From Patescibacteria group bacterium (GTDB lineage Bacteria; Patescibacteriota; Minisyncoccia; Minisyncoccales; Staskawiczbacteraceae): a stretch of 64,000 nucleotides of DNA. Position 1 is the first letter of the stretch. Each line of letters opens with the position of its first letter. The notes beneath the pieces are model-generated. The model ran no database searches. It worked only from the letters and a program-made list of their open reading frames with translations, and was not told the DNA's origin. Location: the NCBI GenBank assembly GCA_038065715.1, contig JBBTQL010000004.1, positions 35,693-99,692 of the forward strand, written 5' to 3'. A program made the translations under genes and the position numbers. Positions 6,582 to 58,987 of the stretch are shown here, piece by piece.

Positions 6582-7913
6582 CTAACCAGCTGGCTGCTCT
6601 TCGTCTTCCTCGACAACCCTCAAAACTTCTTCTAATGTTGTATCTCCTAAAACAACATCAATTAAACCCGACTGGTACATTGTGACCATCCCCTTTTTGA
6701 TGGCTAATTCCCTAATTGATGAAACTGGAGGATTAGTTAAAATAAATTTTTCCATTTGCGAGTCTACTAAAAATACTTCAAATAATCCCTGCCTTCCTTT
6801 ATATCCTGTAAAGTTGCAAGCCTCGCACCCTTTTTCTTTTGTTTTTGCAATTTGTATTTTATTTAAATCAGGAAGGATAATATCGTTGGGCAGATTTTTT
6901 AACCCTTTTTTTATTTCAGATAATTCGCTTGCAGTCGGCTTTGCAAGGGTTGAGCATTTTTTGCATACTTTTCTTACCAATCTTTGGGCTACTGTCATTT
7001 TTAATCCTGATGCGATTGATGACGGTTCTGTGCCTAGGTCCACAAGCCTTGGAATGGTGCCAGCAGCGTCATTAGTATGTAAAGTTGATAATACCAAGTG
7101 GCCAGTTAAAGCCGCTTGCAGGGCTATTTTAGCGGTTTCAAGGTCTCTAATTTCACCAACCAATATAACATCGGGGTCTTGCCTTACTATTGACCTTAGC
7201 CCGTCTGAAAAGTCATATCCTTTTTCTGGAGCCACTTGTGTTTGAGAAACGCCTTTTAAGTGATATTCAATCGGGTCCTCAATTGTGATAATTTTAATTT
7301 CTGGATTTTGAATCTTCATTAAAAAAGCGTAAAGAGTAGTTGTTTTTCCAGAACCCGTAGGACCTGTAACAATTATCATTCCATTGGGCTTTTCAATTTC
7401 TTTTTGAAAAATTTTATATAAATCTTTTCTTAATCCTAAAGAATCTAACCCAATTAAATTTTTTGGATTTAAAATTCTCATTACAATTGATTCGCCATAT
7501 TCAGCCGGCAGGCTGGAAGTTCTTATTTCTATTAATGAGTCCTCAATTTCTATGGTAAACCTTCCGTCTTGCGGCTTATCTGTGATATTTAATTTAAGCC
7601 TAGAGAGAAGCTTTAATCTGGAAATTAAGCTGTGATATATTTTTTCGTCAAAAAAAACAACGTCCTGTAAGACGCCGTCTAACCTTATTCTTAACCTTGA
7701 GTTATTTTCCTGCGGCTCTATATGTATATCAGAAGTATCAAGCGCTATGGCTCCAAACAAAATAACATCTAAAAGATTTGTGGTATTTTGCGTTATGTAT
7801 TCTTCTATCTTTGCTTTAAAATTGGAAATACTTTTAACATCTTTTTTTACTTCAACTATAACATCTTTTGAAATAGCTACGGTTCCTAATAATTTTTTCT
7901 TTGTTTCATTCAT
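6582..7913 (-). CDS. Type II/IV secretion / type IV pilus assembly ATPase (GspE/PilB family)
   Basis: 443 aa. Walker A GPTGSGKTTT, Asp box LVGEIRD, His box TGHLVLSTLHTN, and a tetracysteine motif CKKC...CEAC. Confidence 0.9.
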   Translation of the reverse strand: MNETKKKLLGTVAISKDVIVEVKKDVKSISNFKAKIEEYITQNTTNLLDVILFGAIALDTSDIHIEPQENNSRLRIRLDGVLQDVVFFDEKIYHSLISRLKLLSRLKLNITDKPQDGRFTIEIEDSLIEIRTSSLPAEYGESIVMRILNPKNLIGLDSLGLRKDLYKIFQKEIEKPNGMIIVTGPTGSGKTTTLYAFLMKIQNPEIKIITIEDPIEYHLKGVSQTQVAPEKGYDFSDGLRSIVRQDPDVILVGEIRDLETAKIALQAALTGHLVLSTLHTNDAAGTIPRLVDLGTEPSSIASGLKMTVAQRLVRKVCKKCSTLAKPTASELSEIKKGLKNLPNDIILPDLNKIQIAKTKEKGCEACNFTGYKGRQGLFEVFLVDSQMEKFILTNPPVSSIRELAIKKGMVTMYQSGLIDVVLGDTTLEEVLRVVEEDEEQPAG

Positions 7914-11619: not shown

Positions 11620-12513
11620 ATGCCAGAGCTTCCAGAAGTAGAAACAACGGTGCGCGGTTTAAATTCAAAGGTCCTAAAAAGGGCCTTTGTTGATGTGTGG
11701 TCAGATTGGGAAAGAATAATTAAAAAACCAGACAATTTTGAAGTTTTTAAAAAAAATATAAAAGGTAAAAAAATAGAAAAAATATGGCGCCGCGCTAAAA
11801 ATATTATTTTTGATTTATCTGAAGAAAGTTCTCTTTTAATCCACCAAAAAATGACAGGCCATCTTTTGCATGGAACATGGAACATAAAACATGAAACATG
11901 GACGCCGGCTGAAAAAGGTCCATTGAATGACCCGATGAATCGTTTTATTCATTTAATATTTTTTTTAGACAATGGAAAAATGCTCGCTTTGTCTGATGCA
12001 AGAAAATTTGCCAAAGTTGAATTATGGAAAACAGAAGAATTATTAAAAGAATTTGATAATTTAGGGCCAGAACCGCTGGACAAAAATTTTACTTTTGAAA
12101 AGTTTAAAGAAAGATTGTTGCGGCAAAACCCGCCTTCGCCAAGGCTTCGGCGGGGCAAAGTAAAACAGGTTTTAATGAATCCAGAAATAATTGCAGGCAT
12201 TGGAAATATTTATTCTTCAGAGGCATTGTGGCATGCAAAAATACATCCAGAAAAAGAAATCCAAAAATTAAATGGCAAAGAACTAAAAAATATTTATAAT
12301 TCTATTAAAAAAGTTTTAGAGTTGGGGGTGAAATTGGGAGGAGAAAGTTTCTCAGACTACAGAAAACCAGACGGCAGCAAAGGAAATTTTGACACAGAAA
12401 GAAGGGCTTATAAAAGGGAGGGGCAAAAATGCCATAGATGCGGGACAAAAATAAAAAGAATAAAATTTGGCGGCAGAAGCGCATTTTTTTGCCCCCACTG
12501 CCAAAAACTATGA
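11620..12513 (+). CDS. mutM: Formamidopyrimidine-DNA glycosylase
   Basis: N-terminal MPELPEVET and a C-terminal zinc finger CHRCGTKIKRIKFGGRSAFFCPHCQ. Carries a GC-rich in-frame insert at 12129-12155. Confidence 0.95.
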   Translation: MPELPEVETTVRGLNSKVLKRAFVDVWSDWERIIKKPDNFEVFKKNIKGKKIEKIWRRAKNIIFDLSEESSLLIHQKMTGHLLHGTWNIKHETWTPAEKGPLNDPMNRFIHLIFFLDNGKMLALSDARKFAKVELWKTEELLKEFDNLGPEPLDKNFTFEKFKERLLRQNPPSPRLRRGKVKQVLMNPEIIAGIGNIYSSEALWHAKIHPEKEIQKLNGKELKNIYNSIKKVLELGVKLGGESFSDYRKPDGSKGNFDTERRAYKREGQKCHRCGTKIKRIKFGGRSAFFCPHCQKL

Positions 12514-12527
12514 TAAAAGCAAAAAAT

Positions 12528-12546
12528 AGAGACCCGATCTCGCACA
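12528..12546. repeat. REP-like sequence upstream of RAYT (degenerate, inverted orientation)
   Basis: AGAGACCCGATCTCGCACA is the near reverse complement of the downstream REP core GTGTGAGATCGGGTCTC. Confidence 0.6.
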
Positions 12547-12565: not shown

Positions 12566-13303
12566 ATGCCATATAGAAAAGAACAATTTGTGAACGGAGA
12601 TATTTATCACATTACCAATAGAGCAATTGATGATAACTTAATTTTTAAAGATAAAAACGATTATTATCGCGGTATTTTTTCTATTTATGAATTTAATAAT
12701 GAAAAACCTGTGAATATATCTAATAGAAGACGAGATCGGATTGTCGAAAAAGAAAGAGAAAAACCGTGTGAGACCGGGTCTCATGCGAAGCTTTCTTCGG
12801 ATGAAAGGGAAAAGTTGGTGGATATTTTTGCATTTTGTTTTATGCCAAATCATATTCATCTTTTGGTAAAACAGCTGGAAGATAATGGAATAACTAATTT
12901 TATGAAAAAAGTCGGCATAGGATATGGAGGTTATTTTAATAGAAAATATCAGCGCAAAGGTTATGTTTTCCAAAACAGATTTAAATCAGTTCACATAGAG
13001 AATGACAATCAATTTATGGTGGTTGTGCCGTACATATTTACAAATCCCACCGCATTAATAGAGCCAGGGTGGAAAGGACAGGGGATCAAAAATCACTCCA
13101 CCAAAGAGGTGCTTAAATTTTTAGAAGAATACAAGTGGTCAAGTTATCAAGATTGTATTGGAATTAAGAATTTTGATTCTGTCACACAAAGAGATTTTTT
13201 ATTAGAAATGATGGCAGGCAAACAAGGTTGTAAAGACGCAGTTGAAAATTGGATAAAAAATAAAGTCGAAATTGGACAGCACGCAAATATTTTATTAGAT
13301 TAA
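12566..13303 (+). CDS. REP-associated tyrosine transposase (RAYT, IS200/IS605 Y1 HUH family)
   Basis: 245 aa. YHITNRA, the HUH motif in FMPNHIHLLV, and a C-terminal Tyr-containing region. Flanked by REP-like hairpins. Confidence 0.8.
   Translation: MPYRKEQFVNGDIYHITNRAIDDNLIFKDKNDYYRGIFSIYEFNNEKPVNISNRRRDRIVEKEREKPCETGSHAKLSSDEREKLVDIFAFCFMPNHIHLLVKQLEDNGITNFMKKVGIGYGGYFNRKYQRKGYVFQNRFKSVHIENDNQFMVVVPYIFTNPTALIEPGWKGQGIKNHSTKEVLKFLEEYKWSSYQDCIGIKNFDSVTQRDFLLEMMAGKQGCKDAVENWIKNKVEIGQHANILLD
12766..12786. repeat. REP-like hairpin inside the RAYT coding sequence (in frame)
   Basis: AAAACCGTGTGAGACCGGGTCTCATGC closely matches AAAACCGTGTGAGATCGGGTCTCACAC at 13303-13330. Encodes ..KPCETGSHA.. Confidence 0.65.
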
Positions 13304-13306
13304 AAA

Positions 13307-13332
13307 CCGTGTGAGATCGGGTCTCACACAGC
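13307..13332. repeat. REP hairpin downstream of RAYT
   Basis: GTGTGAGA-TCGGG-TCTCACAC, a perfect 8-bp stem, immediately after the RAYT stop. Confidence 0.75.
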
Positions 13333-13341
13333 TTGCTAAAA

Positions 13342-14316
13342 ATGATTTATTTTATTTACGGGGAAGATTCTTACAGGTCAAAAAAGAAATTAGAAGAGAT
13401 AATTTTAGGTTACAAAAAAGTCCATAAATCAGGATTAAATTTGGTTTATGTTGATGCTGGTAAAACAGACTTTAATGATTTTTACAGCAATTTTAAAATT
13501 ACCTCAATGTTTGCTGAAAAAAAACTGATAGTTTTAAAAAATGTTTTTTCTCGCCCTGAACGCGCCGAAGGGCCAAGTCAAAAGTTTCAGGAGGAGTTTT
13601 TAGAAAATTTTAAAAATTTAGAAAAAATTGAAGATATAATTATTGTTTTTGAATATGATGCGGTTGATGAAAGAAAAAAGCTTTTTAAAATTTTAAAAAA
13701 AGAAACAAAATGCCAGGAGCTCTCTTTTCTTTTTGGGCTAAGCCTAAAAAAATGGGCAAAAGAGGAGTTCGAAAAAAACAAAACAAAAATTAATCCTGAC
13801 GCAGAAGACTTGCTTTTGGCTTTTACGGGAAACGATCTCTGGCAATTAGCAAATGAGATAAATAAATTATCAAATTATAAAAGAGAGGGGTACTCGCTGC
13901 CAGGTCTTATAAAAAAAGAAGATGTTGAGCTTTTAGTAAGGCCTAAGTTAGAAAATGATATTTTTAAAACAATTGAAGCCATGGCTCAAAAAAATAAAAA
14001 AGAAGCTTTTTCTTTATTGCATAAGCATATTGAAAATGGAGACAACGCCCTTTATCTGCTTTCAATGATTGCCTACCAGTTTAAAAATCTTTTAATAATA
14101 AAAGAACTTATTGAAAAACGCCTGCCCTATGCTGTTGTTTCAAAAAACAGCGGGCTTCACCCGTTTGTTGTTAAAAAAACATATTATTTGTGCGGCCAGT
14201 TTTCATTTAACGAACTAAAAAAAATCTACCAAAAAATTTTTCAGGCAGATTTAGATATTAAAACAGGTAAGATTGATCCAGAACTCACCTTAGATTTATT
14301 AGTTTCAGAAGTATAG
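13342..14316 (+). CDS. holA: DNA polymerase III delta subunit
   Basis: N-terminus MIYFIYGEDSYRSKKKLEEII and overall length typical of HolA. ATG 13342 preferred over TTG 13333. Confidence 0.8.
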   Translation: MIYFIYGEDSYRSKKKLEEIILGYKKVHKSGLNLVYVDAGKTDFNDFYSNFKITSMFAEKKLIVLKNVFSRPERAEGPSQKFQEEFLENFKNLEKIEDIIIVFEYDAVDERKKLFKILKKETKCQELSFLFGLSLKKWAKEEFEKNKTKINPDAEDLLLAFTGNDLWQLANEINKLSNYKREGYSLPGLIKKEDVELLVRPKLENDIFKTIEAMAQKNKKEAFSLLHKHIENGDNALYLLSMIAYQFKNLLIIKELIEKRLPYAVVSKNSGLHPFVVKKTYYLCGQFSFNELKKIYQKIFQADLDIKTGKIDPELTLDLLVSEV

Positions 14317-16419: not shown

Positions 16420-18360
16420 ATGGGAGAAAAACCAAACAGAGGAGAAAATGCCAAAAATATACAAATGGTAAAAAATATGGCCGAACAAGCCAAAGCACTT
16501 GAAGATAGTCAAGCTTCAACTAATCCAGAAATAACTCCACCGCAACTTCCACCAAAACCAGACGGAAGTCCAATACCTCCAGAAATTTTTGCTGGAGGTT
16601 TAAAAGGAGTAAAAGCGCCAGCGGAAGAGCTTGTTGGACAGGGAAAATTAGAAAATGTAATTAAACCCAACGAGTCTTTTATCGAAAGTGAAAAAAAATA
16701 TTTTCAAACAAAAGCATATTTTGAAAGATTGATAGAAGCTACTAATGACAAATTAGAAGAATTAAGTTTTAATTTGAAAGAAGGAAAAGGCGCGAAAGAA
16801 GACACAAAAAATGAAATAGCCGATGTAAAAAAAGATTATAAAAAAGTCTCGGATTTGCTTCACGATTTAGAAAACGGAAAAACCGAACAAGTAAAGGTAT
16901 TTATTGCCGACAGGCTGGAATTGGCAAAAAAACAAATTGAGATAGGAGAAATAAAAGAAGATGACGATAAATATACTCATCTTTTAGAGCTTGCTGAAGA
17001 GCTTGGTATACAGAAGGAGGCAGAAAAAGAAAATAAACCTCAAGTTACAGAAAAATTAATTCAGCCAAATGGAAATATAGAAGATGACAGCACAAAAAAA
17101 GTTTTAGATGCGGCAAAAGAAAAATTAGAAAAACAAAGACAAATTTTAGAGTCAGCTTATGGTTCTGGAGATAACACAATAGATGTTGGTGCAGAAGCGA
17201 AGCTAATTGTCAGCCAATTTGAAACGCCCCTGCTAGAGGAAATACCAGTTCCAAAAACAGAGGTTGAGCCGCTTGTTACAGAATCAAGTTTAGAAGAAGA
17301 AAAAGAACAGGGAGAAGCTGTTGTTAGTCCTGATGGCAAATTTATTTACATTAATGGAGAAAAAGAAAAGCCAGCCGTAGAAGAAAAGGTTAGAGTGGAA
17401 TCTGAAGAAGACAGAGAAAAAAGAGAAAAAGCAGAAGCACAGCTGGCTGAAGAAATGCGCTTGCAAAAAATCAAAGAAGCAAAAGAAGAATTAATAAAAA
17501 CAGCAGAGCAGATAAAAACTGCAGTTGCAGAAAAAAATAAAAGCAGTGAGGCGTTGTTATTAGAATCTGCCAAGGGGCCTTTTGAAACAGCAACTGGAGA
17601 AAATTTAGAAAGAAAGAGCGGTGAAAGAGCAGAATTGGTGGCTAAAGAAACAATGAATTGTAAAAGAGTAACTGTGGCAGAATATCTGCAAGAAAATACA
17701 AAAAAAGAAACAGGCATTGCTGAACAAAAACAGAGATTTAAAGCATTAAAAAAATATTGGGCTAATTTATCTAAGGAAGAACAAATACAATATGTTCATG
17801 ACGGTAAAGTTGATGCAAATAAAGTCGCTGTAGATTTGGATAAAAAAATAAATGATAAAAAAGCGGAGTTAGGTAAAAAAGGAATAGAACTTTCTACAAA
17901 TGCATTTTATGCAATGATTGATAATGGATTAAGGCCAGAAGAAATCAAGATATATAAACCATGGTATTCCTCCGTGTTTAAAATAGAAATTCCGCGTTTG
18001 TCTAAAAGAGATAAAAGCGGACCGGCTAAATATTCAGAAAAAGATTTTGCGGAGGAAATTAAAGAGATAGAGGGTGTTTTTAATAAATCAATTAGAAGCG
18101 ATGCAAGAGCCCAACTCGAAAGAAAAATTATATCAGGCAAGAATATATGGAAACAAATAAAGCAAAAGTGCATGAGAAATATAATTGAAGAAACAGCTGA
18201 TGAATATAAAAAACAACAAGAGAATCTGCAGGAAGAACAGGCCGAAAACGCCACAAATAATGTTGCGCCAGAAGTTAAAGTCAGGCGAAGAAAAAATCGA
18301 TTTACTGCGCCAAAAGCTGAGGGTAGACATAAAATAATAAAGAAAAAAAGTAAAAAATAA
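16420..18360 (+). CDS. Large K/E-rich coiled-coil hypothetical protein
   Basis: 646-aa ORF. Low complexity in the first two thirds, with a more ordinary C-terminal 200 aa. No recognisable family. Confidence 0.5.
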   Translation: MGEKPNRGENAKNIQMVKNMAEQAKALEDSQASTNPEITPPQLPPKPDGSPIPPEIFAGGLKGVKAPAEELVGQGKLENVIKPNESFIESEKKYFQTKAYFERLIEATNDKLEELSFNLKEGKGAKEDTKNEIADVKKDYKKVSDLLHDLENGKTEQVKVFIADRLELAKKQIEIGEIKEDDDKYTHLLELAEELGIQKEAEKENKPQVTEKLIQPNGNIEDDSTKKVLDAAKEKLEKQRQILESAYGSGDNTIDVGAEAKLIVSQFETPLLEEIPVPKTEVEPLVTESSLEEEKEQGEAVVSPDGKFIYINGEKEKPAVEEKVRVESEEDREKREKAEAQLAEEMRLQKIKEAKEELIKTAEQIKTAVAEKNKSSEALLLESAKGPFETATGENLERKSGERAELVAKETMNCKRVTVAEYLQENTKKETGIAEQKQRFKALKKYWANLSKEEQIQYVHDGKVDANKVAVDLDKKINDKKAELGKKGIELSTNAFYAMIDNGLRPEEIKIYKPWYSSVFKIEIPRLSKRDKSGPAKYSEKDFAEEIKEIEGVFNKSIRSDARAQLERKIISGKNIWKQIKQKCMRNIIEETADEYKKQQENLQEEQAENATNNVAPEVKVRRRKNRFTAPKAEGRHKIIKKKSKK

Positions 18361-22788: not shown

Positions 22789-24039
22789 ATGAGGATAAAA
22801 GAAGCAGTTAAAAAAATATTAGGCAGAAATTTGTTGGGTTTTTATCATTATGGCATGGCTTTTTTGGGAGCTGTGATTTTTGGTTTTCCATCTAAAAATT
22901 TAACTGTTATAGGGGTTACAGGCACCAGCGGTAAATCAACTACTTCTGATTTTATCACAAGAATTTTAGAAGAACCCTTCGACGGGGCCCAGGGCAGGTC
23001 TGGCAATAAGGTGGCTTCAATTTCAACAATAAGATTTAAAATTGCAGAAAAAGAATGGGAAAATAAATATAAAATGACAATGCCCGGCCGTTTTGTTATT
23101 CAAAAGTTTTTAAGGCAGGCAAAAAAAGCAGGATGCAAATTTGTGGTTTTAGAAGTTACTTCGCAAGGCATTGAACAATATCGCCATAAATTTATAAATT
23201 TTGATACAGCTGTTTTTACTAATTTGTCGCCAGAGCATATTGAAAGCCATGGCAGTTTTGAAAATTACAGAAACGCAAAACTAAAACTATTTCGAGCAAC
23301 AAAAAACATCCATATTATAAATACTGATGACGCAAATTCAAAATATTTTTGGAATATTCCGGCAAAACAAAAAATTGGATTTTCAGCCAAAGATGCGCAA
23401 AACGCTAATTTAAAATTAAATTTAATTGGAGACTTTAATATTTTAAACGCCTTAGCGGCAATTTCTGCGGCAAAGGCATATGGCATTGATTTTAGCATTT
23501 GTAAAAGGGCGCTGGAAAAGGCCAAAGGAATTTCTGGCAGAATGGAAGTGATTCAAAAAGAGCCATTCAAAGTTATTGTTGACTATGCTCATACTCCAGA
23601 ACAACTCGAAAGTGTCTATAAGGCACTTTCTCAAAACCCAAAACCTCAAACTCCAAACCCCAAACTTATTTGTGTGCTTGGAAGTTGCGGCGGGGGAAGG
23701 GATAAATGGAAAAGGACTGTTTTAGGAGAAATTGCAAATAAATATTGCGACAAAATATTTATAACCAATGAAGATCCATATGATGAAAACCCCAACCAGA
23801 TTTTATCTGAAATAAAATCTGGAATTATCAATTCTCAATTTCCAATTTCCAATTTATATGAAATTTTAGACCGTAAAGAGGCAATTAAAACTGCAATAAA
23901 ATTAGCAAAATCAGATGATATTGTTATAATCACTGGCAAGGGTTCAGAATCCTGGATGTGCATAGCAAACGGTAAAAAAATCCCCTGGGACGACAGGCAA
24001 ATCGCTAAAGATGCGTTGGGGCTCCAAACCTTGACATAG
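22789..24039 (+). CDS. murE: Mur ligase, MurE-like UDP-MurNAc-tripeptide synthetase
   Basis: GVTGTSGKSTT P-loop, DYAHTP and GSCGGGRDKWKR. Carries in-frame repeat inserts at 22975-23004, 23630-23667 and 23835-23856. Confidence 0.8.
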   Translation: MRIKEAVKKILGRNLLGFYHYGMAFLGAVIFGFPSKNLTVIGVTGTSGKSTTSDFITRILEEPFDGAQGRSGNKVASISTIRFKIAEKEWENKYKMTMPGRFVIQKFLRQAKKAGCKFVVLEVTSQGIEQYRHKFINFDTAVFTNLSPEHIESHGSFENYRNAKLKLFRATKNIHIINTDDANSKYFWNIPAKQKIGFSAKDAQNANLKLNLIGDFNILNALAAISAAKAYGIDFSICKRALEKAKGISGRMEVIQKEPFKVIVDYAHTPEQLESVYKALSQNPKPQTPNPKLICVLGSCGGGRDKWKRTVLGEIANKYCDKIFITNEDPYDENPNQILSEIKSGIINSQFPISNLYEILDRKEAIKTAIKLAKSDDIVIITGKGSESWMCIANGKKIPWDDRQIAKDALGLQTLT

Positions 24040-24218: not shown

Positions 24219-24878
24219 ATGGCTGTGCAAGTCATTGGCGATCTATATGTGGAGTTGGATGGGAAGTTGGCGGAGATTAAGCGGCAAATGAGGCAGCAGG
24301 GAGGCTATCCGTTTGACCCGGAGAAATTAAACAAGTTTCTCCAACTAGCTGTCGAGGGCAGGTTCAACGACAACCGGTGCTGGTGCGAGAAGGAAGGAGT
24401 GATCTACTTTGAGGTCACCTCTGACGGCACGACTGGACCCCAATGGATTGAGCGTCTGGAGAAGAAGGGTATCCAGCTCTCCAAGTGGGCCAAGGACGTC
24501 CTGCTGTCTCCGGACTTCAAGCCGACCAACGGCGTGACCACCGAGATCGCTGTCCTCAAGGGCGCGCTTTTTATGGACAATGATCGCATCACGTCTAAGA
24601 TCCGCGCTGAGGCCGACAAGCGCAAGCTCGTCAAGCCCGAAGCCGAACTCGGTTGCCTTATCCGCGACACGTTCACGGACGAGGAAATCGAAGCCATGGG
24701 TCTTGTGTGGATCGTGGCGTTCCACGAGCCCATCAAGGACTCTGACGGCGATCCGACGTTGCTCGGTGCGCGTCGCCTTGGCGATGGCCGTTGGCTGCGC
24801 GCGTGCTGCGGCCTGCCCGACCGCAGGTGGCTTCGCGACCGTGGCTTTGCCTTCGCCGTCTCGCAAGTATCTTCGTAA
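24219..24878 (+). CDS. DGR-1 variable (target) protein with C-terminal VR, no signal peptide
   Basis: 219 aa; RBS AAAGGAG before the ATG. Sampled 60-nt lines are about 60-65% GC versus about 30% for the genome. The C-terminal 42 codons are the VR. Confidence 0.85.
   Translation: MAVQVIGDLYVELDGKLAEIKRQMRQQGGYPFDPEKLNKFLQLAVEGRFNDNRCWCEKEGVIYFEVTSDGTTGPQWIERLEKKGIQLSKWAKDVLLSPDFKPTNGVTTEIAVLKGALFMDNDRITSKIRAEADKRKLVKPEAELGCLIRDTFTDEEIEAMGLVWIVAFHEPIKDSDGDPTLLGARRLGDGRWLRACCGLPDRRWLRDRGFAFAVSQVSS
24741..24866 (+). repeat. Variable repeat VR-1
   Basis: Gap-free 126-nt alignment with TR-1. There are 21 substitutions opposite TR adenines and one C/G difference; the last 25 nt are identical. Confidence 0.9.
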
Positions 24879-24974
24879 GTCCTTTGGGCTTGAGCCTTTG
24901 CTCTAGCCCTTGGATCCTCTGCCCTTTGCATTTCCTCACGGACTTGCACTGGGCAGATTTTTTTTGCTAAAATA

Positions 24975-25334
24975 TAAATGGTAATAGGTGAATCTTGCGG
25001 GAGATCAAGGTTTCCCGCGGCCGAATCCAGTATTCGTATGCTGAGAGCGTTTGCGATTAAGGTTGCAAACGGAGGGCATACGAATTACTTTCAAAAAAGA
25101 AGATACTTGGCGTGGGAAACTAGGGCATTACGATGCCGAATTCGATACAGCCCTGTGATCGTAAAACTACTTCAAGGGGCAGTGGCATAGATGGTTTCTT
25201 GCGTATTTCTGACGGCGATCCGAACTTGCTCAGTGCGAATCGCAATGACGATGGCCATTGGCTGAACGCGTACTACGACAAGCCCGACAACAGGTGGAAT
25301 CGCGACAATGGCTTTGCCTTCGCCGTCTCGCAAC
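24975..25334 (+). ncRNA. Putative DGR-1 template RNA (structured 5' region plus TR)
   Basis: Candidate promoter TTGCAC-18-TAAAAT (TG-extended) near 24940-24972. Extended hairpin at 25029-25089 and blocks conserved with locus 2 up to 14 nt before TR. Transcript ends are not determined. Confidence 0.5.
25209..25334 (+). repeat. Template repeat TR-1 (noncoding)
   Basis: Copy of the VR with A at 21 variable positions, mostly in AAC/AAT codons of the VR frame. No RBS or start codon. Confidence 0.9.
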
Positions 25335-25339
25335 TCTCT

Positions 25340-25699
25340 TCATTTCTCTCCTTGCTTAGGAGAGTTTTGTTTAATAATTTGTCCCGACCAACCACCGAGC
25401 ATTTTGCCAATTTCATCTAGTTTCAATGATAGAGCAATATATTTTTTGTTATCCAATGATTTTGTTTCCCAAAGAATCATTAAAAATATTTTTAACGTAT
25501 CGACCTTTCTAATTGCTAAACGTACATAGGACAATTTTTCTGATTGCCCAAGAAAACTTGCAGTCACTATTGCCTCTATTGCTTCAACAAAAAGTTTATC
25601 AATTTTTTCACCAAGAGAATATTTATGTATTTTTGGTATAATTAAATAGTGTTGGTACCAAAAAAGATAAGCTTCTTTCAACTTTTGCAAAACAGGCAA
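25340..25699 (-). CDS. avd: DGR accessory variability determinant (Avd-like four-helix-bundle protein)
   Basis: About 119 aa from a TTG start (LPVLQKLKEAYLFWYQ...). Homologous to the 122-aa ORF at 63274-63642. Helical pattern with C-terminal IGKMLGGW. The track ORF extends further upstream (25834), probably spuriously. Confidence 0.8.
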   Translation of the reverse strand: MPVLQKLKEAYLFWYQHYLIIPKIHKYSLGEKIDKLFVEAIEAIVTASFLGQSEKLSYVRLAIRKVDTLKIFLMILWETKSLDNKKYIALSLKLDEIGKMLGGWSGQIIKQNSPKQGEK

Positions 25700-25705
25700 C
25701 AGTCT

Positions 25706-25715
25706 GGGGGGGGGG
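25706..25715. repeat. Homopolymeric G10 tract in the avd/RT divergent gap
   Basis: G10 lies 6 nt from the avd TTG start and 24 nt before the RT ATG. The paralogous position in DGR-2 has G7. Confidence 0.9.
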
Positions 25716-25739
25716 ATTAAAAGCTGAGTTATTTTGATT

Positions 25740-32697: not shown

Positions 32698-34527
32698 ATG
32701 AAGAACAAGGAAATTGCTAAAATATTTTATGAAATAGCGAAATTTTTAGAAATAGAAAGAGTGGCTTTTAAGCCCTATGCTTATGAAAGGGCTGGTAATT
32801 CCTTAGAAGCATTGAAAGAAGATGTGGGCGATATTTATAGAAAAGGCGGGGCAAAGGCTTTGCAGGAAATTTCAGGAGTCGGCAAAAATATTGCAGGGCA
32901 TATTGAAGAGTATTTAAAAAATGGAAAGGTAAAAATCTACGAACAGCTTAAAAAGAAATTGCCCCTTAAAATAGATGAGTTGATTAAAGTAGAAGGTTTG
33001 GGCCCAAGAAAAATAAAAATTCTTTATCAAAAATTAGGCGTTAAAAATTTGAAAGATTTGGAAAAGATGGCTAAGGCGCATAAAATAGCCCCGCTTTTCG
33101 GTTTTGGAGAAAAAACAGAAAATAATATTTTAGAAGGCATTGAATTTTTAAAAAGAAGCAAAGGCCGGTCTCGTTTGGGAGACATAATGCCAATAGTAGA
33201 AGAAATTTTTGAAAATTTAAAAAATTTAAAAGAGGTTGAAAAAATCAGTTTAGCTGGCTCTTTAAGAAGAAGAAAAGAAACTATTGGAGATGTTGATATT
33301 TTAGTGGTTTCCCGCCCAGCAGGGCGAGGCTCGCCTGGTGAGGCGGCTAATAAAGTAATGGATTTTTTTGTTTCTCAAGAGGGCGTAGAAAAAGTATGGG
33401 GCAAAGGAGGAACAAAAGCATCGGTTCATATGAAATATGGATTTGATATGGATTTAAGAATTGTTCCCGAAAAAAGTTATGGCTCTGCTTTGCAATACTT
33501 TACCGGGTCAAAAGACCACAATATTGTTACAAGAAAAATTGCCATAGAAAAAGGCCTAAAATTAAGCGAGTACGGAGTTTTTAAAGGAAAAAAACAGATT
33601 GCCGGTAAAACAGAAGAAGATGTTTATAAAGCAATTGGTTTGCCATTTATAGAACCAGAATTAAGAGAAAACGAAGGCGAAATTGAGGCGGCTCTTCGAC
33701 AAGCTCAGGGTAAACTTCCGGGATTGCCAAAAATAGTTGAGTTAAAAGATATAAGGGGGGACTTACATTGCCATTCAAAACCCGATGGAGTCGCCCATTT
33801 GAATGTCGGAGAAAAATCGATTGAAGAAATGGCTAAAGTGGCAATGGCTATGGGTTACGAATATATTGGAATTTCTGATCATACAAAATTTTTAAAAATT
33901 GATGATGGTTTAGACGAGAAACAATTATTAAAACAAAATGAAGCAATAAAAAAAATAAATACCCGCCTCCGCCAACCTGCGCTTCGCCAAAGGCTTCGGC
34001 AAGGCGAGGGCTTCGGCGGGCAAGAAAAATTTCGCATACTTCACGGATGCGAGGCAAATATTCTACCGGACGGTTCAATAGATATTAAAGACGAAGTTTT
34101 GGCTCAATTAGATTATGTTATAGCTGGCGTTCACAATGCTTTAAAACAAGAAAAACTAAAAATGACAGAAAGGTTAATAAGAGCAATGAAAAATCCGAAT
34201 GTTGATATTATTTCGCATCCAACGGGCAGATTAATAGGCAGCAGAGACGAATATCAAATTGATTTTGATAAAATTTTAGAAATAGCAAAAGAAACCGGAA
34301 CAATTTTGGAAATTAATTCGTCTCCTTACAGATTAGATTTAAAAGACTTATATGTCAGAAGAGCAAAAAATGAAGGCGTGAAAATGATTATAAATACCGA
34401 CAGCCACCAAAAAGAGCAATTAAATCTTATGGAATATGGAGTTTCGCAAGCCAGAAGAGGTTGGGCGGAGAGAGAGGATATTATAAACACAAATTCATTA
34501 GACGGATTATTAAAATATTTTAAATGA
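32698..34527 (+). CDS. polX: Family X DNA polymerase with C-terminal PHP domain
   Basis: HhH motifs, GSLRRRKETIGDVDILV and the PHP motif GDLHCHS. Three GC-rich in-frame inserts, at 33311-33346, 33686-33723 and 33962-34020. Confidence 0.9.
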   Translation: MKNKEIAKIFYEIAKFLEIERVAFKPYAYERAGNSLEALKEDVGDIYRKGGAKALQEISGVGKNIAGHIEEYLKNGKVKIYEQLKKKLPLKIDELIKVEGLGPRKIKILYQKLGVKNLKDLEKMAKAHKIAPLFGFGEKTENNILEGIEFLKRSKGRSRLGDIMPIVEEIFENLKNLKEVEKISLAGSLRRRKETIGDVDILVVSRPAGRGSPGEAANKVMDFFVSQEGVEKVWGKGGTKASVHMKYGFDMDLRIVPEKSYGSALQYFTGSKDHNIVTRKIAIEKGLKLSEYGVFKGKKQIAGKTEEDVYKAIGLPFIEPELRENEGEIEAALRQAQGKLPGLPKIVELKDIRGDLHCHSKPDGVAHLNVGEKSIEEMAKVAMAMGYEYIGISDHTKFLKIDDGLDEKQLLKQNEAIKKINTRLRQPALRQRLRQGEGFGGQEKFRILHGCEANILPDGSIDIKDEVLAQLDYVIAGVHNALKQEKLKMTERLIRAMKNPNVDIISHPTGRLIGSRDEYQIDFDKILEIAKETGTILEINSSPYRLDLKDLYVRRAKNEGVKMIINTDSHQKEQLNLMEYGVSQARRGWAEREDIINTNSLDGLLKYFK

Positions 34528-36424: not shown

Positions 36425-36916
36425 ATGCCAAAAGAAAAGTCAGCTGGAGTTATAATTTTTAGACGGGAACCCTTCGACCCGGCTCAGGGTAAAAAATCTG
36501 ATATTTTTTACCTGCTTTTGCATTATGCTCCGTCTGAGCCGGGAAAACATGGACACTGGGGGTTTGCAAAAGGGCATATTGAAAAAGGCGAAACAGACGA
36601 AGAAACAGCTAAAAGAGAAGTCGCTGAAGAAACTGGCATTAAAGACCTAAAAATAATTTCTGGATTTAAAGAATTAGAAAAATATTTTTTTAGGCAGGTT
36701 TACGGGCTAAAGGGCGAAGCAAGAAAAAAAGCGCCGTGGGTTTTCAAATCAGTTGTATTTTTTTTAGCTGAAACAAAAATTAAAGATGTTAAAATTTCAG
36801 AAGAACACGCTGGTTTTTTGTGGCTGGCTTACGGAGATGCTGTTAGAAAAATAAGTTTTAAAAACTCAAAAGAGCTATTAAAAAAAGCAAATGAATTTTT
36901 AGAAGAAAACAAGTAA
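36425..36916 (+). CDS. Nudix hydrolase
   Basis: Nudix box GHIEKGETDEETAKREVAEETGI. In-frame insert at 36464-36493 (EPFDPAQGK). Confidence 0.9.
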   Translation: MPKEKSAGVIIFRREPFDPAQGKKSDIFYLLLHYAPSEPGKHGHWGFAKGHIEKGETDEETAKREVAEETGIKDLKIISGFKELEKYFFRQVYGLKGEARKKAPWVFKSVVFFLAETKIKDVKISEEHAGFLWLAYGDAVRKISFKNSKELLKKANEFLEENK

Positions 36917-36918
36917 AA

Positions 36919-36957
36919 TAAAAAACCGTCCTTCGATAATCTTGGGACGGTTTTTCG
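36919..36957. terminator. Bidirectional terminator hairpin with a conserved loop (family B)
   Basis: AAAAAACCGTCC-TTCGATAATCTTG-GGACGGTTTTT, between convergent genes. Confidence 0.75.
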
Positions 36958-39152: not shown

Positions 39153-39830
39153 ATGAATAAGGAAACTATAATAATTTCACTGGGTGGGTCGCTTGTAGCG
39201 CCGGGGGAAATTGATATTGGATTTTTGAAGAATTTTAAGCACGCTTTGTTAAAATACTTAAAGTTAAAGCGTTTTTTTATTATTGTAGGCGGAGGCAAAA
39301 TTTGCAGAAATTACCAAAAAACATTATCAGAATTTGGCGCAAAAGATGTTGATAAGGACTGGATAGGAATAAATGTTTCAAAATTAAACGCAGAAGTTGT
39401 AAAACAGGTTTTTTCTAAGTTTTCTTTTTCTGAAATTATTACAAACCCTACAAAAGAAATAACAACTAAAAAAGATATTGTTGTAGCGTCTGGCTGGAAA
39501 CCTGGCCGCTCTACTGATTACTGCTCCGTTGTGATGGCAAAAAAAGCCGGTATTAAGACGATTATAAACTTAACAAATATTGATTATGTTTACGATAAAG
39601 ACCCAAAACAGTTTCCTGGAGCTAAAGCCATAAAAGAAATAAGCTGGAAAGATTTTAGAAAAATTATTGGTGATAAATGGAGCCCTGGATTGTCAGCTCC
39701 CTTTGACCCTGAGGCTTCAAAAATTGCAGAAAAATTAAAATTAAAGGTGGCAATGATTAACGGCAAAAATTTAGAACGCCTTGAAGATTTTTTAAACAGT
39801 AAGCCATTTATTGGAACTATTATTCAATGA
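39153..39830 (+). CDS. pyrH: Uridylate kinase (archaeal-type amino acid kinase fold)
   Basis: 225 aa with IISLGGSLV at the N-terminus and an amino-acid-kinase family pattern. Confidence 0.75.
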   Translation: MNKETIIISLGGSLVAPGEIDIGFLKNFKHALLKYLKLKRFFIIVGGGKICRNYQKTLSEFGAKDVDKDWIGINVSKLNAEVVKQVFSKFSFSEIITNPTKEITTKKDIVVASGWKPGRSTDYCSVVMAKKAGIKTIINLTNIDYVYDKDPKQFPGAKAIKEISWKDFRKIIGDKWSPGLSAPFDPEASKIAEKLKLKVAMINGKNLERLEDFLNSKPFIGTIIQ

Positions 39831-41482
39831 TAAAAGAAGAAATAAAAAAAATAGTGGAAAACTCAATTAAAAACCTGCAAAAACAGGGCGCATTTTTAAA
39901 ATTAAAAATGCCAGAAATTTTAATTGAGCGGCCTAAAGAAAAAATACGCGGTGACTATTCAACCAACATTGCCTTTGTAATTGGAAAAGATGTTTTGAAA
40001 AATCCATTTGAAACGGCATTGCTTTTGAAAACAGAAATTGTCTCGCTTTGCGAGATCTCGCGCAGCGAGAAAAAACAAAAATCTGTAATAGAAAAAGTTG
40101 AGGTAGTGGGAGGGTTTATTAATTTTTTTGTTGCTGACGATTATTTTAAAAATCAGCTGCAAATTATTTTAAAACAAAAAAACAAATTTGGAGATTTAAA
40201 ACTTGGTAAAAGTCAAAAAGTAAACATAGAATTTATTTCTGCAAATCCAACAGGGCCGTTAACTTTAGGAAACGGCAGAGGAGGATTTTGTGGCGATGTT
40301 TTGGCTAATGTTTTAGAAAAAGCAGGATATAAAGTTGAAAGAGAATATTATATTAACAATACCGGAGCTCAAATTAAAAAACTTGGGCATTCTGTAATTG
40401 GAGATGCAGAAGCTGTTTACAAAGGAAAATATATTATTGATTTAAGAAACAAAGTTAAGGGAGATGACCCCGAGAAAGTTGGAGAAAAATCGGCAAAAAT
40501 TATTTTAGAAAAAATGATAAAGCCGTCTGTAAAAAAAATGGGAATTAAATTTGACACATGGTTTTCAGAAAAAACTCTCTATAAAAATAAAGAAGTAGAT
40601 AAAACAATACAAGAATTGGCTAAAAAAGGGTTCACCTATGAAAGCGAAGACGCTGTGTGGTTTAAATCTAAAGAATTGGGCGATGACAAAGACAGGGTTT
40701 TGGTGAGAGCCGACGGAATTAAAACATATTTTGCTTCAGATATTGCTTATTTTAAAAATAAATTTAAAAGAGGGTTTGGTAAACTTATTATGTTTTTGGG
40801 AGCCGACCACTATGGATATGTTCCGAGGCTAAAAGCTGCCTCGCTTGCTTTTGGTTTTAAAAAAGACAGTATTGATGCTATTGTTATGCAGTTGGTGCGG
40901 CTTTATGAAAAAGGCAAAGAAGTAAGAATGGCAAAAAGGACTGGTATTTATGTAACAATAGATGAGTTAATTGGCGAGGTTAGTTTGGATGTTGCCAGAT
41001 TTTTCTTTTTAATGATAAGCCCTAATACCCACATGAATTTTAATTTGGATTTAGCAAAAGAAAAATCAGAGAAAAATCCGGTTTTTAAAGTGCAATATGC
41101 GCATGCCCGAATTTGCTCAATTTTCCGAAAATTTGGAAATTTCAAATTTTCCCGATTTCATCGAGGATCCTCAATGGCAAAGCCATCGGGACAAATTTCA
41201 AATTTAAAATTATTAAATGAGCCGAGCGAGTTAGGGTTAATTAGAGAATTAATTAAACTTCCAGAAATTATTGAAGAGATAGCTAAAGATTATCAAGTTC
41301 AAAGACTACCGCAATACGCAATGGATTTAACTGATGCATTCCATAGATTTTATGAAAACTGTAAAGTCCTGAGCGAAGTCGAAGGATTGCGTGATGCCCG
41401 CTTGTCTCTTGTTATGGCAACAAAAATTGTTTTAAAAAATACATTAGACTTAATGGGAATATCTGCTCCTGAAAAAATGTGA
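39827..41482 (+). CDS. argS: Arginine--tRNA ligase
   Basis: 551 aa with SANPTGPLTLGNGRG and VQYAHARICS; ends in M. Carries inserts at 40049-40078, 41137-41205 and 41368-41392. Confidence 0.95.
   Translation: MIKEEIKKIVENSIKNLQKQGAFLKLKMPEILIERPKEKIRGDYSTNIAFVIGKDVLKNPFETALLLKTEIVSLCEISRSEKKQKSVIEKVEVVGGFINFFVADDYFKNQLQIILKQKNKFGDLKLGKSQKVNIEFISANPTGPLTLGNGRGGFCGDVLANVLEKAGYKVEREYYINNTGAQIKKLGHSVIGDAEAVYKGKYIIDLRNKVKGDDPEKVGEKSAKIILEKMIKPSVKKMGIKFDTWFSEKTLYKNKEVDKTIQELAKKGFTYESEDAVWFKSKELGDDKDRVLVRADGIKTYFASDIAYFKNKFKRGFGKLIMFLGADHYGYVPRLKAASLAFGFKKDSIDAIVMQLVRLYEKGKEVRMAKRTGIYVTIDELIGEVSLDVARFFFLMISPNTHMNFNLDLAKEKSEKNPVFKVQYAHARICSIFRKFGNFKFSRFHRGSSMAKPSGQISNLKLLNEPSELGLIRELIKLPEIIEEIAKDYQVQRLPQYAMDLTDAFHRFYENCKVLSEVEGLRDARLSLVMATKIVLKNTLDLMGISAPEKM
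41137..41205 (+). repeat. Composite insert in argS: family A copy A3 nested within an AAATTTC heptamer repeat
   Basis: AAATTTCAAATTT (41137-41149), then TCCCGATTTCATCGAGGATCCTCAATGGCAAAGCCATCGGGAC, then AAATTTCAAATTT (41193-41205). Encodes GNFKFSRFHRGSSMAKPSGQISNLK. Confidence 0.8.
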
Positions 41483-41536
41483 AATTTAGCTATGCTGAAT
41501 TTCATCCTGAGCTATTGCGAAGGATAAATTATTACT

Positions 41537-42413: not shown

Positions 42414-42671
42414 ATGCAGATTATTTATTCTCCGCAATTTGTAAAAGATTACAAAAAAATAAACGAGCAGACAAAGAGAAAAGCGGAGGCGAAAGAAAAT
42501 ATTCTTCGCAATAATCCTTTCGACAGCCGTTTAAAAACCCATAAATTAAGCGGTAAGTTTTATGATTTTTGGTCGTTTTCCGTTGATTATAATTGCAGAA
42601 TAATTTTTGAGTTTAAAAATGAAAAAATTGTTATATTCCATGCAATTGGTAGCCATTCTATTTATAAATGA
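42414..42671 (+). CDS. RelE/ParE-family toxin
   Basis: 85 aa with ...LKTHKLSGKFYDFWSFSVDYNCRIIFEF....IVIFHAIGSHSIYK. Confidence 0.8.
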   Translation: MQIIYSPQFVKDYKKINEQTKRKAEAKENILRNNPFDSRLKTHKLSGKFYDFWSFSVDYNCRIIFEFKNEKIVIFHAIGSHSIYK

Positions 42672-58948: not shown

Positions 58949-58987
58949 AAAAAAAGACCGCCCTTAGACTTTGCTCAAGGCGGTTTT
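58949..58987. terminator. Bidirectional terminator hairpin (family B-like loop)
   Basis: AAAAAAGACCGCC-CTTAGACTTTGCTCAA-GGCGGTTTTT. Confidence 0.7.

Follow-up and report, generated by a model that had tools for sequence, protein, structure and literature searches.

Family B, a short interspersed sequence in terminator hairpins and genes of a Patescibacteria genome: a candidate ultra-small mobile DNA element

Introduction

How can one short sequence form the loop of transcription terminators between genes and also stand, in frame, inside genes? The question is raised by a 64-kb stretch of a metagenome-assembled genome (MAG) of a Patescibacteria group bacterium (contig JBBTQL010000004.1, positions 35,693 to 99,692; hereafter the window), whose DNA has a GC content of 30-39%. 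The Nudix protein encoded there is identical to an NCBI entry named 'Patescibacteria group bacterium', and Staskawiczbacteria are among its relatives. A preliminary description of the window, made from its letters and open reading frames (ORFs), had noted three terminator hairpins with similar large loops and four genic segments with the same loop consensus, and had proposed that one hairpin module both terminates transcription and colonizes coding regions. Here we analyze this sequence family, termed family B. Its core, TTCGAC-N2-3-GCTCA, has a short closing stem, RYCC/GGRY, and behind it a short tail, and in AT-rich genomes of the candidate phyla radiation (CPR) the unit is a 24-mer, C-CCTTCGAY-NN-GGCTCAGGGTAAA. 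The window holds about ten copies, in which the element spans 24-38 bases and the core 13-14 bases.

We consider it probable, at roughly 0.6, that family B is an ultra-small mobile interspersed DNA element similar to repetitive extragenic palindromes (REPs) and small dispersed repeats (SDRs). As judged from the alleles and contexts compared below, the cassette appears to join genomes as a discrete, sharp-ended block without target duplication, and its apparent landing places are intergenic DNA, the center or apex of existing hairpins, and the interior of genes. Genic copies survive where their length is divisible by three, the frame open (four of six) and the position a surface loop. Filled alleles appear to cross between related lineages on short recombination patches, and old copies seem to decay toward AT. 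Block insertion, unrelated contexts, nesting, patchiness, spread on patches, decay, and survival only in open frames and surface loops are the grounds on which we prefer to read family B as a selfish interspersed element.

Family B copies in the window

A covariance-model search, suggested in the preliminary description as a check and run here on the window, found nine copies, all with E <= 3.5e-3, and no other match at that level. The model (R2) was trained on 20 hairpin copies, every one of them from an unrelated viral or genomic contig, and was applied with filters off; its E-values are rough (short calibration). The nine copies, of which the best match is the intergenic hairpin at 62095 (E 1.6e-6), comprise all three terminators, four of the five genic copies and both other intergenic hairpins. 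The next matches follow at E 0.11 and 0.23, the latter being the MurE copy, and there is nothing further. Since a model derived from unrelated taxa recovers nine window copies and nothing else, the assignment of terminators and genic segments to one sequence family is supported at the sequence level. Three of the copies, all on the minus strand, had escaped the preliminary description, which therefore understated the family: one antisense in the ArgRS gene (core at 41367-41386, LSEVEG) and two intergenic (41501 and 62095) raise the total to about ten. Similarity among the loops did not vanish as copies were added but grew stronger.

Degenerate searches for the core gave 7 matches in the window against 1.1 expected and, in a second search, 8 against 0.37. 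A scripted search for the core with a flanking stem of at least 3 bp found 8 sites against 1.6 +/- 1.3 expected, one of the eight being the T-arm of tmRNA and hence false. The AT-rich loop TTCGATAAAYTCR of the two best terminators is not enriched in the window (11 matches, 12.2 expected), and the membership of these two terminators relies on their hairpin context and on the independent model R2.

The three large-loop terminator hairpins are present with the coordinates and sequences originally given for them, and they fold far better than shuffled sequences in both orientations (z -2.3 to -6.6). The four genic sites first reported, in MurE, a 98-aa ORF, PolX and the Nudix gene, are likewise present and in frame with the peptides quoted for them. 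The core of the MurE copy is degenerate (GCCCA instead of GCTCA) and marginal under R2 (E 0.23). The five intergenic copies are hairpins of 28-38 nt, whereas the five intragenic copies are not palindromic past 3-4 bp and fold like shuffles (RNA z 0 to +1, DNA z about 0); genic copies are copies of the core sequence, not hairpins. Of the proposed dual module, then, one family and the colonization of genes stand, whereas the unit found in genes is a 24-nt cassette with a 3-4-bp stem and not a hairpin. Both orientations relative to transcription occur among the window copies (Table 1).

Table 1. Copies of family B in the window, with fold z-scores and E-values under model R2
Copy	Position	Strand	Sequence	Translation	z	E (R2)
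MurE, 24-nt in-frame insert	22975..22998	+	CCCTTCGACGGGGCCCAGGGCAGG	PFDGAQGR		0.23
Short copy in 98-aa ORF, low-complexity variable region	26891..26910	+	tcc-TTCGACGCGGCTCA-gga	SFDAAQD		2.6e-4
Long-stem, terminator-like	28162..28199	+	AAAAAAACCATCC-TTCGATAAACTCA-GGATGGTTTTTT		-5.0/-6.6	2.5e-6
PolX, 2-nt spacer	33692..33715	+	CTC-TTCGACAAGCTCA-GGGTAAAC	LRQAQGK		2.4e-3
Nudix, 24-nt in-frame insert	36470..36493	+	CCC TTC GAC CCG GCT CAG GGT AAA	PFDPAQGK		6.7e-4
Long-stem, bidirectional-terminator-like, Nudix/rplT convergent	36919..36957	+	AAAAAACCGTCC-TTCGATAATCTTG-GGACGGTTTTT		-4.8/-4.6	7.3e-4
ArgRS, antisense, same-length patch	41367..41392	-	+ strand CCTGAGCGAAGTCGAAGGATTGCGT	LSEVEGLR		8e-4
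Intergenic hairpin, ArgRS/next gene, 7-bp stem, no T-run	41501..41528	-	tttatcc-TTCGCAATAGCTCA-ggatgaa		-3.5	3.4e-5
Long-stem, terminator-like, TatD/112-aa ORF convergent	58949..58987	+	GACCGCC-CTTAGACTTTGCTCAA-GGCGGT		-3.0/-2.3	3.5e-3
Intergenic hairpin after LeuRS, no T-run	62095..62122	-	gttgtcc-TTCGGCTCTGCTCA-ggacgac			1.6e-6

Filled and empty alleles of the Nudix gene

Forty orthologs of the Nudix protein (64-83% identity) align without gaps but for one point, at which 13 of them carry an 8-residue F-D-x-A-Q-G-K segment. The insert is present in 15 of 120 homologs that are scattered over the tree; at least 12 state changes are needed to account for the carriers in a neighbor-joining tree built without the insert columns, which rests on about 150 residues. 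Carriers are closer to non-carriers than to one another: P0003 is 91.9% identical to the non-carrier P0022 and 79.7% to its best other carrier, and the corresponding values are 89.5% (P0114) and 76.9% for P0046, and 85.7% (P0110) and 76.9% for P0018. Filled and empty alleles are exactly 24 nt apart, the difference being CCC TTC GAY NNG GCT CAG GGT AAA, with no target duplication. In a structure model of the protein with a predicted local distance difference test score (pLDDT) of 91, the insert occupies residues 16-23 in the beta1-beta2 loop, between strands 3-14 and 27-34, which is thus predicted to be a tolerated surface-loop position.

Over the 15 + 24 nt that flank its insert, P0003 agrees with the window at 36 of 39 positions but with its own 92%-identical sister at only 20 of 39; over the remainder of the gene it is closer to the sister (85% identity) than to the window (76.5%). 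We conclude that an insert-bearing patch of ~63 nt was swapped between lineages. In P0046 the flanks stay sister-like (32/39), and this carrier thus presents a clean 24-nt difference. Of six carriers ascertained by protein search, and so free of DNA-pattern bias, five use TTC together with GCT and CAG, TTC making up 9% of the Phe codons in window genes. The carrier P0009 retains the peptide but reads CCA TTT GAT AAG GCT CAA GGC AAA, with four synonymous changes toward AT. Since the motif has decayed there at synonymous sites, the DNA motif does not appear to be maintained inside genes, and the decay of this one old genic copy argues against a function in such places. Most genic copies are apparently young or recently homogenized, and the old ones seem to decay.

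Strict site-specific homing into the Nudix site was also considered; it is weakened by a different hairpin family at the same site of a His_Phos gene (see below) and by the carrier that acquired its insert on a recombination patch, and the simpler reading is that surface loops tolerate inserts.

The window also encodes a ComEA-like protein (HHH_3 and lamin-tail domains, 4044-5057, minus strand) and a PilB/T2SSE-type ATPase (6582-7913, minus strand), that is, DNA-uptake/pilus machinery relevant to the recombinational spread of alleles.

Other genic copies and intergenic sites

The remaining sites were compared in four syntenic relatives, L121-L124. The 24-nt MurE insert is common to the window and L121, with different spacers (GGG and ACA), and is absent in L122. 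The insert in PolX, of 18 nt or six residues, is unique to the window relative to the four orthologs. Judging by this comparison with orthologous genes, another of the checks suggested earlier, the copies in MurE, PolX and the Nudix gene are 18-24-nt lineage-specific in-frame indels and not conserved motifs of the host protein families, most orthologs being without the insert. The ArgRS copy involves no indel: it is a 25-nt patch in which 13 differences from L123 are clustered, the sequence on either side being nearly identical; L123 itself carries an ArgRS copy at another position. The 18-nt hairpin insert in the His_Phos gene of L121 has its place taken in L122 by a different palindrome, also of 18 nt. 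The copy in the 98-aa ORF lies in a low-complexity variable region. Outside genes, the 41501 copy sits in an intergenic stretch of ~50 nt that is absent from all four relatives. Overall, the syntenic relatives have 0-5 copies per 20 kb, with four to five in L121 and none in the syntenic stretches of the close relatives L122 and L124.

We rejected the idea that the stem is templated by inverted copying of the target flank, which was hinted at by the L121 His_Phos insert; at the Nudix site both arms lie inside the insert.

Other short GC-rich, lineage-specific in-frame inserts, of different sequence, are present in the same genes: PAGRGSPGEA and PALRQRLRQGEGFGGQ in PolX (32698-34527), SRFHRGSSMAKPSG in ArgRS (39827-41482), CLPAGRV in the MurE gene of L121 (876-2111) and TGACTGCACAGGCAGGAA in the His_Phos gene of L122 (~17456-17473). 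A hairpin of the CTGCC-N-GGCAG type stands at 28304-28325 of the window. The variety of these unrelated inserts suggests that several hairpin-insert families colonize the genes of this lineage. A RelE/YafQ/ParE-type toxin gene was also observed at 42414-42671 (plus strand).

Terminator copies and hairpin apexes

The copies at 28162, 36919 and 58949 share one layout, in which an A-run precedes a GC-rich stem of 6-7 bp with a 13-16-nt loop and a T-run follows. A GC-rich stem with an immediate T-run 3' of a gene is found only at these three, the 41501 and 62095 copies lacking the T-run. In agreement with the preliminary description, two of them lie between convergent genes: the 36919 hairpin is 3 nt past the Nudix stop codon and 12 nt from the stop codon of rplT (L20), and the 58949 hairpin, which has the most diverged loop of the family, separates TatD from the 112-aa ORF. 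The 28162 hairpin belongs to a co-directional gene pair. The consensus terminator scan takes loops of 3-8 nt only, which is why it did not list these hairpins.

The large conserved loop had been called unusual for a terminator, and rightly so: at the Nudix-rplT site five other relatives have ordinary loops of 2-6 nt. The window and L121 have an equal loop there on different stems (CCGTCC-TTCGATAATCTTG-GGACGG versus CCCGCTC-TTCGATAAACTCG-GAGCGGG). At the site 3' of a NIF3-like gene, the window, L123 and L124 keep the outer stem AAAAACCATC/GATGGTTTTT, but the apexes are not alike: the window has the family-B loop, as does L121, whereas L123 has CCGCTTAGCGGG and L124 a nested hairpin. Since orthologous terminators keep the outer stem while the apex differs, a mobile cassette inserted in, or exapted as, a terminator apex is more likely than a terminator that spreads. 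In the two best terminators the loops, TTCGATAAACTCA and TTCGATAATCTTG, are AT-shifted relative to TTCGACAAGCTCA elsewhere, which would fit the same decay as in old genic copies.

Long-stem copies with A- and T-runs probably act as bidirectional intrinsic terminators, to judge from their layout. The 41501 copy, read on the plus strand, places GAAGGA ~12 nt upstream of the next ATG and may supply a Shine-Dalgarno-like sequence. Both uses would be exaptations rather than the reason for which the sequence exists.

Next to the 28162 terminator, a conserved structured region of ~135 nt (28024-28158, plus strand), with a GAGGGGG/CCCCCTC closing helix, ends at this family-B hairpin and is preceded by a promoter-like TTGACA-16-TAAAAT at 27991-28018. 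The region is found at the same place in L121-L124 and has no Rfam match; RNAalifold predicts 36 pairs, 9 of which show compensatory changes. It is a candidate undescribed noncoding RNA or leader of the gene at 28283-28561. In L121 the ortholog of the 28162 terminator occurs twice, flanking a run of N (3590-3725), and this duplication is probably a scaffolding artifact caused by the hairpin; MAG assemblies may hold errors, as this N-gap inside one L121 terminator illustrates.

The element in other genomes and metagenomes

The pattern CCTTCGAC-N2-3-GCTCAGG was scanned in viral and genome collections. Host range and abundance are samples, not totals, and the figures of this and the next paragraph hold among the matches listed. 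The hosts include Chloroflexota, Bacteroidota, Cyanobacteria, Acidobacteriota, Actinomycetota, Alpha-, Beta- and Gammaproteobacteria, Planctomycetota, Nitrospirota, Verrucomicrobiota and CPR, in all more than a dozen phyla. The 2-nt spacer is AA or AG in 78 of 101 cases in the viral collection and 75 of 93 in the genome collection, and 3-nt spacers include TCC, TTC and TGC. The stem is RYCC/GGRY and the tail RARC (GCGAAC, ACGAAC, ATGAGG, RCAGGC, GTAAAC). None of these spacer, stem and tail features was imposed by the search pattern.

Stems extended by three or more pairs were found at 61 sites against 14 in shifted-partner controls, and at least 8 of 10 stem positions are paired at 25 sites against 2.8 in such controls. 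The stems are unrelated from copy to copy, including closings other than CC/GG. In a set of 27 hairpin copies, five columns of the loop do not vary, and each of the ten stem pairs has changes on both of its sides. Most sampled copies carry a stem of only 4 bp.

The CPR-type 24-mer was found at no fewer than 119 metagenome loci; 115 full-flank sites are listed, in at least 101 distinct contexts. Since about 20 bases are specified, chance matches are close to nil. Among the 101 contexts listed, flank information falls to ~0 bits past -1 (C) and +1 and the central NN is hypervariable; this drop-off matches the 24-nt unit deduced from the Nudix alleles. Of the same contexts, 47 lie in ORFs of at least 150 codons, 26 of them in the PFDxAQGK frame, and four of the six reading frames of the 24-mer are open. 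Cassettes are nested at the center of antisense hairpin repeats in several contigs (L251, L274, L286 and L303/306/327) and stand in tandem in others (L321, L359, L367), and the contig L113 has GTAG-tagged inverted doublets that carry the family-B loop.

An adapter or assembly artifact was dismissed: copies are present in isolates (among the matches listed, Gelidibacter, Microbacterium, Sphingomonas and Streptomyces), and the same codon is filled in independent samples with different spacers. Rfam gave no family match to the element in the window, either at the gathering threshold or at E <= 10, and only tRNA matches in 18 loci of long-stem copies. By inspection the loop fits neither a K-turn, a loop E, a hammerhead nor a UUCG tetraloop, and mimicry of a tRNA T-loop or D-arm, suggested by the likeness to TTCGA and GCTCAG, was rejected on the misfit of the closing pair and the 7-nt loop geometry. 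A literature search with the DNA strings, the peptides, and REP/RAYT plus CPR returned no description of the family, REP consensus sequences given only in figures not being comparable.

Some further observations concern single contigs. Composite repeats recur in metagenome contigs of GC 0.5-0.67 (L303, L306, L327, L328, L279, L286), where a cassette with a CTCCG tail stands between GTCATTGCGAGG...CGAAGCAATCTC or GTCATTYTGAGC...GCGAAGAATCTC arms; their recurrence suggests that the cassette is part of larger nested repeat families in GC-rich bacteria. In a Staskawiczbacteria contig (L162, 338-440) the copy CCCTTCGACAAGCTCAGGGTAAACC starts 1-3 nt from the 3' end of a tRNA-Glu gene, in place of CCA. 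The window genome itself is present in Hainich groundwater time-series metagenomes (L273).

Candidate enzymes in the window

A gene at 12566-13303 (plus strand) encodes a Y1 HUH transposase resembling the REP-associated tyrosine transposases (RAYTs), with a PF01797 match of 35 bits (cutoff 23), HUH (PNHIHLL) and YIFTNP motifs, and a match of 41.9 bits to NF047646, which is under the cutoff of 80. The gene is flanked by the hairpins GAGACCCGATCTC (12529-12541) and, inverted, GTGTGAGATCGGGTCTCACAC (13309-13329), and a third copy inside it (12768-12784) encodes CETGSH, a REPtron/TIRtron-like layout. On sequence grounds the protein is a candidate mobilizing enzyme only, unlinked to the cassette. 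Two weak family-B-like matches of model R2, at 13547-13580 (minus strand, E 0.11) in holA and 12129-12154 (plus strand, E 2.9) in fpg, flank this gene and are either decayed copies or chance. In the contig L347, as a single case, the palindrome beside a Y1 gene shares the 11-mer GACTCCGCTCA with family B.

The window also has a diversity-generating retroelement (DGR) at 24219-26726, with a target ORF (24219-24878), a variable repeat (VR, 24741-24874), a template repeat (TR, 25208-25341) and a reverse transcriptase (RT) gene (25734-26726; RVT_1, E 1.2e-24). The TR is 134 nt long and 82% identical to the VR, nearly all mismatches being at template adenines. This DGR block of ~2.7 kb is missing between MurE and the small ORF in L121 and L124.

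Mechanism and alternatives

If family B is a mobile element, the cassette would move as single-stranded DNA through a hairpin-recognizing enzyme, for instance an HUH Y1 transposase, which is the weakest step of the proposal; copies with long GC-rich stems and A/T runs would then have been exapted as bidirectional terminators. Several points weigh against this reading. Both the transposition event and the mobilizing enzyme are putative. The hairpin flanking the RAYT-like gene (GTGAGA-YCGGG-TCTCAC) is unrelated to family B and occurs only at that locus in the window, and Y1 genes are not enriched near copies, with one clear match in the 2.74 Mb around them. The ArgRS copy is a replacement rather than an insertion, so that simple cut- or copy-and-paste cannot cover all cases. 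At two orthologous terminators the loops of the window and L121 are near-identical though the stems differ, which fits constraint on the loop as well as common descent. The 27 hairpins that display covariation were picked for having stems. Finally, one 13-nt core across phyla is unlike the lineage-specific REP families and could mean a conserved host factor.

A bona fide REP/REPIN family moved by the RAYT of the window, which would cut single-stranded hairpins and paste them at replication forks, would be a specific mechanism for the mobile-element reading and not an alternative to it. It would account for the presence of a gene with HUH and YIFTNP motifs, for intergenic copies that are, REP-like, imperfect palindromes of 28-38 nt between convergent or co-directional genes, for the missing target duplication, for the GTAG-tagged doublets of L113 and for the 11-mer of L347; REPs inside repair and tRNA-synthetase genes and within other palindromes are documented in passages of Di Nocera et al. 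(2013, PMC3733652). We nevertheless regard this version as rather doubtful, since none of the window copies has the GTAG/CGTC tag, the enzyme falls below its family cutoff beside an unrelated single-locus hairpin, only one clear Y1 gene accompanies the copies, the core spans phyla, and the 24-mer is not a stable hairpin. We also put forward, tentatively, that the ~24-nt cassette, whose conserved core encloses 2-3 hypervariable nt, represents a class of mobile DNA that is new and lacks a dedicated transposase. Machinery common to most bacteria, for instance replication or repair at hairpins that are extruded or single-stranded, or else an unrecognized enzyme, would write it into hairpin apexes and other sites. 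Such a process would explain one core across CPR, Chloroflexota, Cyanobacteria, Proteobacteria and others, as well as the repeated addition of 6-8-residue loops to essential proteins. Alternatively, family B could be a functional RNA or single-stranded DNA structure whose loop is bound by a widely conserved host factor; function would then lie with the terminator and intergenic copies, genic copies being by-products or regulatory sites. The same 13-nt loop between covarying stems across phyla, its retention on different stems at the two window/L121 terminators and its size of 13-16 nt, against 2-6 nt in relatives, agree with this view, as does the complementary strand, for which RNA parameters give U-A, tandem G.A/A.G and G-C pairs closing a pentaloop (-23.7 versus -17.1 kcal/mol). 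We discarded this strand asymmetry as evidence, however, since DNA parameters give -11.8 versus -11.3 kcal/mol and the bare cassette folds like shuffles. A host-factor site is also hard to reconcile with copies in both orientations relative to transcription, with a stem of merely 4 bp in the majority of sampled copies, with genic copies that are unfolded and decay at synonymous sites, with the lack of copies in L122 and L124 and the ordinary terminators of most relatives at the same sites, with the absence of an Rfam match and with sharp block insertion in at least 101 unrelated contexts, and we hold it to be improbable.

Two further explanations appeal to other machinery encoded in the window. 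A motif similar to the DNA uptake sequence (DUS) of Neisseria or the uptake signal sequence (USS) of Haemophilus, favored by the competence machinery, spread by transformation and homologous recombination, and gathering in terminators and permissive gene segments, would be in keeping with the ComEA-like and PilB-type genes, the occurrence of both orientations in genes and terminator hairpins, and the filled allele that crossed lineages on a ~63-nt patch. Known uptake signals occur at ~1 per kb, are lineage-specific and arise by point mutation, whereas family B has a density of ~1 per 6 kb in the window and of 0-5 per 20 kb in close relatives, is a pan-phylum 24-nt block and forms the loop, not the paired arms, of terminators; this origin is therefore very unlikely. 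Least credible of all is that the RT of the DGR writes a short template RNA into breaks or hairpins with an error-prone center, although the DGR adjoins the copy in the 98-aa ORF (24.2-26.7 kb), the ArgRS copy is a same-length replacement patch, and, among the matches listed, AA or AG is the spacer that other taxa have most often. No template copy was found, and L121, with its four to five copies, does not have the DGR block. For this last reason, and because the other adenines of the cassette are invariant, adenine mutagenesis by the neighboring DGR was rejected.

Implications

If the element is mobile, a unit of 24 nt would mark the lower size limit of mobile DNA. For one core to be shared across phyla, horizontal spread would have to be very wide or the mechanism universal, and either would be new to the REP field, whose families are lineage-specific and linked to RAYTs. 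Family B would also be a source of recurrent, homoplasious inserts of 6-8 residues in housekeeping proteins of streamlined CPR genomes; such inserts can mislead phylogenies, alignments and indel-based markers, and translations of the cassette (PFDxAQGK, LRQAQG, LSEVEG and similar) yield many spurious 'hypothetical proteins'. Terminator apexes and protein surface loops would serve as landing pads, with exaptation of the element as terminator or ribosome-binding site. The sharp 24-mer and the filled and empty Nudix alleles provide a directly testable system.

Comparison with known systems

Passages of Di Nocera et al. (2013, PMC3733652) describe REPs as palindromes of 20-40 nt, tagged by GTAG/CGTC and with loops mostly of 2-5 nt, and record intragenic REPs in repair and tRNA-synthetase genes as well as REPs inserted within palindromes. 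Family B resembles REPs, as well as REPINs (PMC3116915), in being made of short dispersed imperfect palindromes near the 3' ends of convergent or co-directional genes. Stem covariation within the family, occasional in-frame genic copies, insertion in other palindromes, the inverted doublets of one other contig (L113) and the RAYT-like gene of the window add to this likeness. Family B differs in several respects: it has no consistent tag in the window (GTAG is found in L113 only), its conserved part is a 13-14-nt loop, its stems are unrelated between copies, and its genic unit of 18-24 nt has no stable hairpin. Its core recurs in many phyla, while a REP family is usually restricted to one species or genus. 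Beside the local RAYT-like gene stands another hairpin, with no cognate REPtron within 64 kb, and inverted doublets of the REPIN type are absent from the window and from L121-L124.

SDRs of Nostocaceae, reportedly described by Elhai and colleagues in 2008, are said to be 21-27 nt long and mobile without coding capacity, with presence/absence differences and insertions into nested or palindromic sites. By this description, the 24-nt unit, sharp ends, presence/absence at orthologous sites and nesting of family B are SDR-like; its pan-bacterial core and its prominent in-frame colonization of housekeeping genes are not. SDRs have been reported only in Nostocaceae, according to a passage in a paper citing that work (PMC5861425). 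Given this restriction, and since tags, a cognate REPtron and lineage specificity are missing, we place family B outside the described families although its habits are REP-like, with the reservation that REPs and SDRs were compared by description and not by consensus.

Compared with intrinsic terminators, three copies have the GC-rich stem, the T-run, the preceding A-run and the position right after stop codons. The family-B loops are conserved and 13-16 nt long, whereas ordinary terminator loops are arbitrary and of 3-8 nt, and each of the seven other copies lacks either a T-run or a stable stem. With uptake signals family B shares a short motif in both orientations, the use of permissive genic sites and terminator hairpins, and spread by recombination; it is about six-fold sparser, pan-phylum and inserted as a block, and it occupies the terminator loop instead of the stem.

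The GC clusters of yeast mitochondria and the 'byp' elements, 30-55 nt long and organellar, are likewise short, mobile and rich in GC; they form hairpins and invade an AT-rich genome, coding regions included. Byps are skipped by the ribosome, whereas the family-B inserts, whose lengths are divisible by three and whose frames are open, are presumably translated. A similar habit is known from the Rickettsia palindromic elements, selfish sequences found in frame in essential genes and translated as surface segments, of which RPE-1 is ~100-150 bp long and confined to Rickettsia. The in-frame inserts of family B in MurE, PolX, the Nudix gene and the His_Phos gene of L121, all absent from orthologs, follow the same pattern on a smaller scale: they are 18-24 nt long, belong to a Patescibacteria host and have counterparts at the apexes of terminators.

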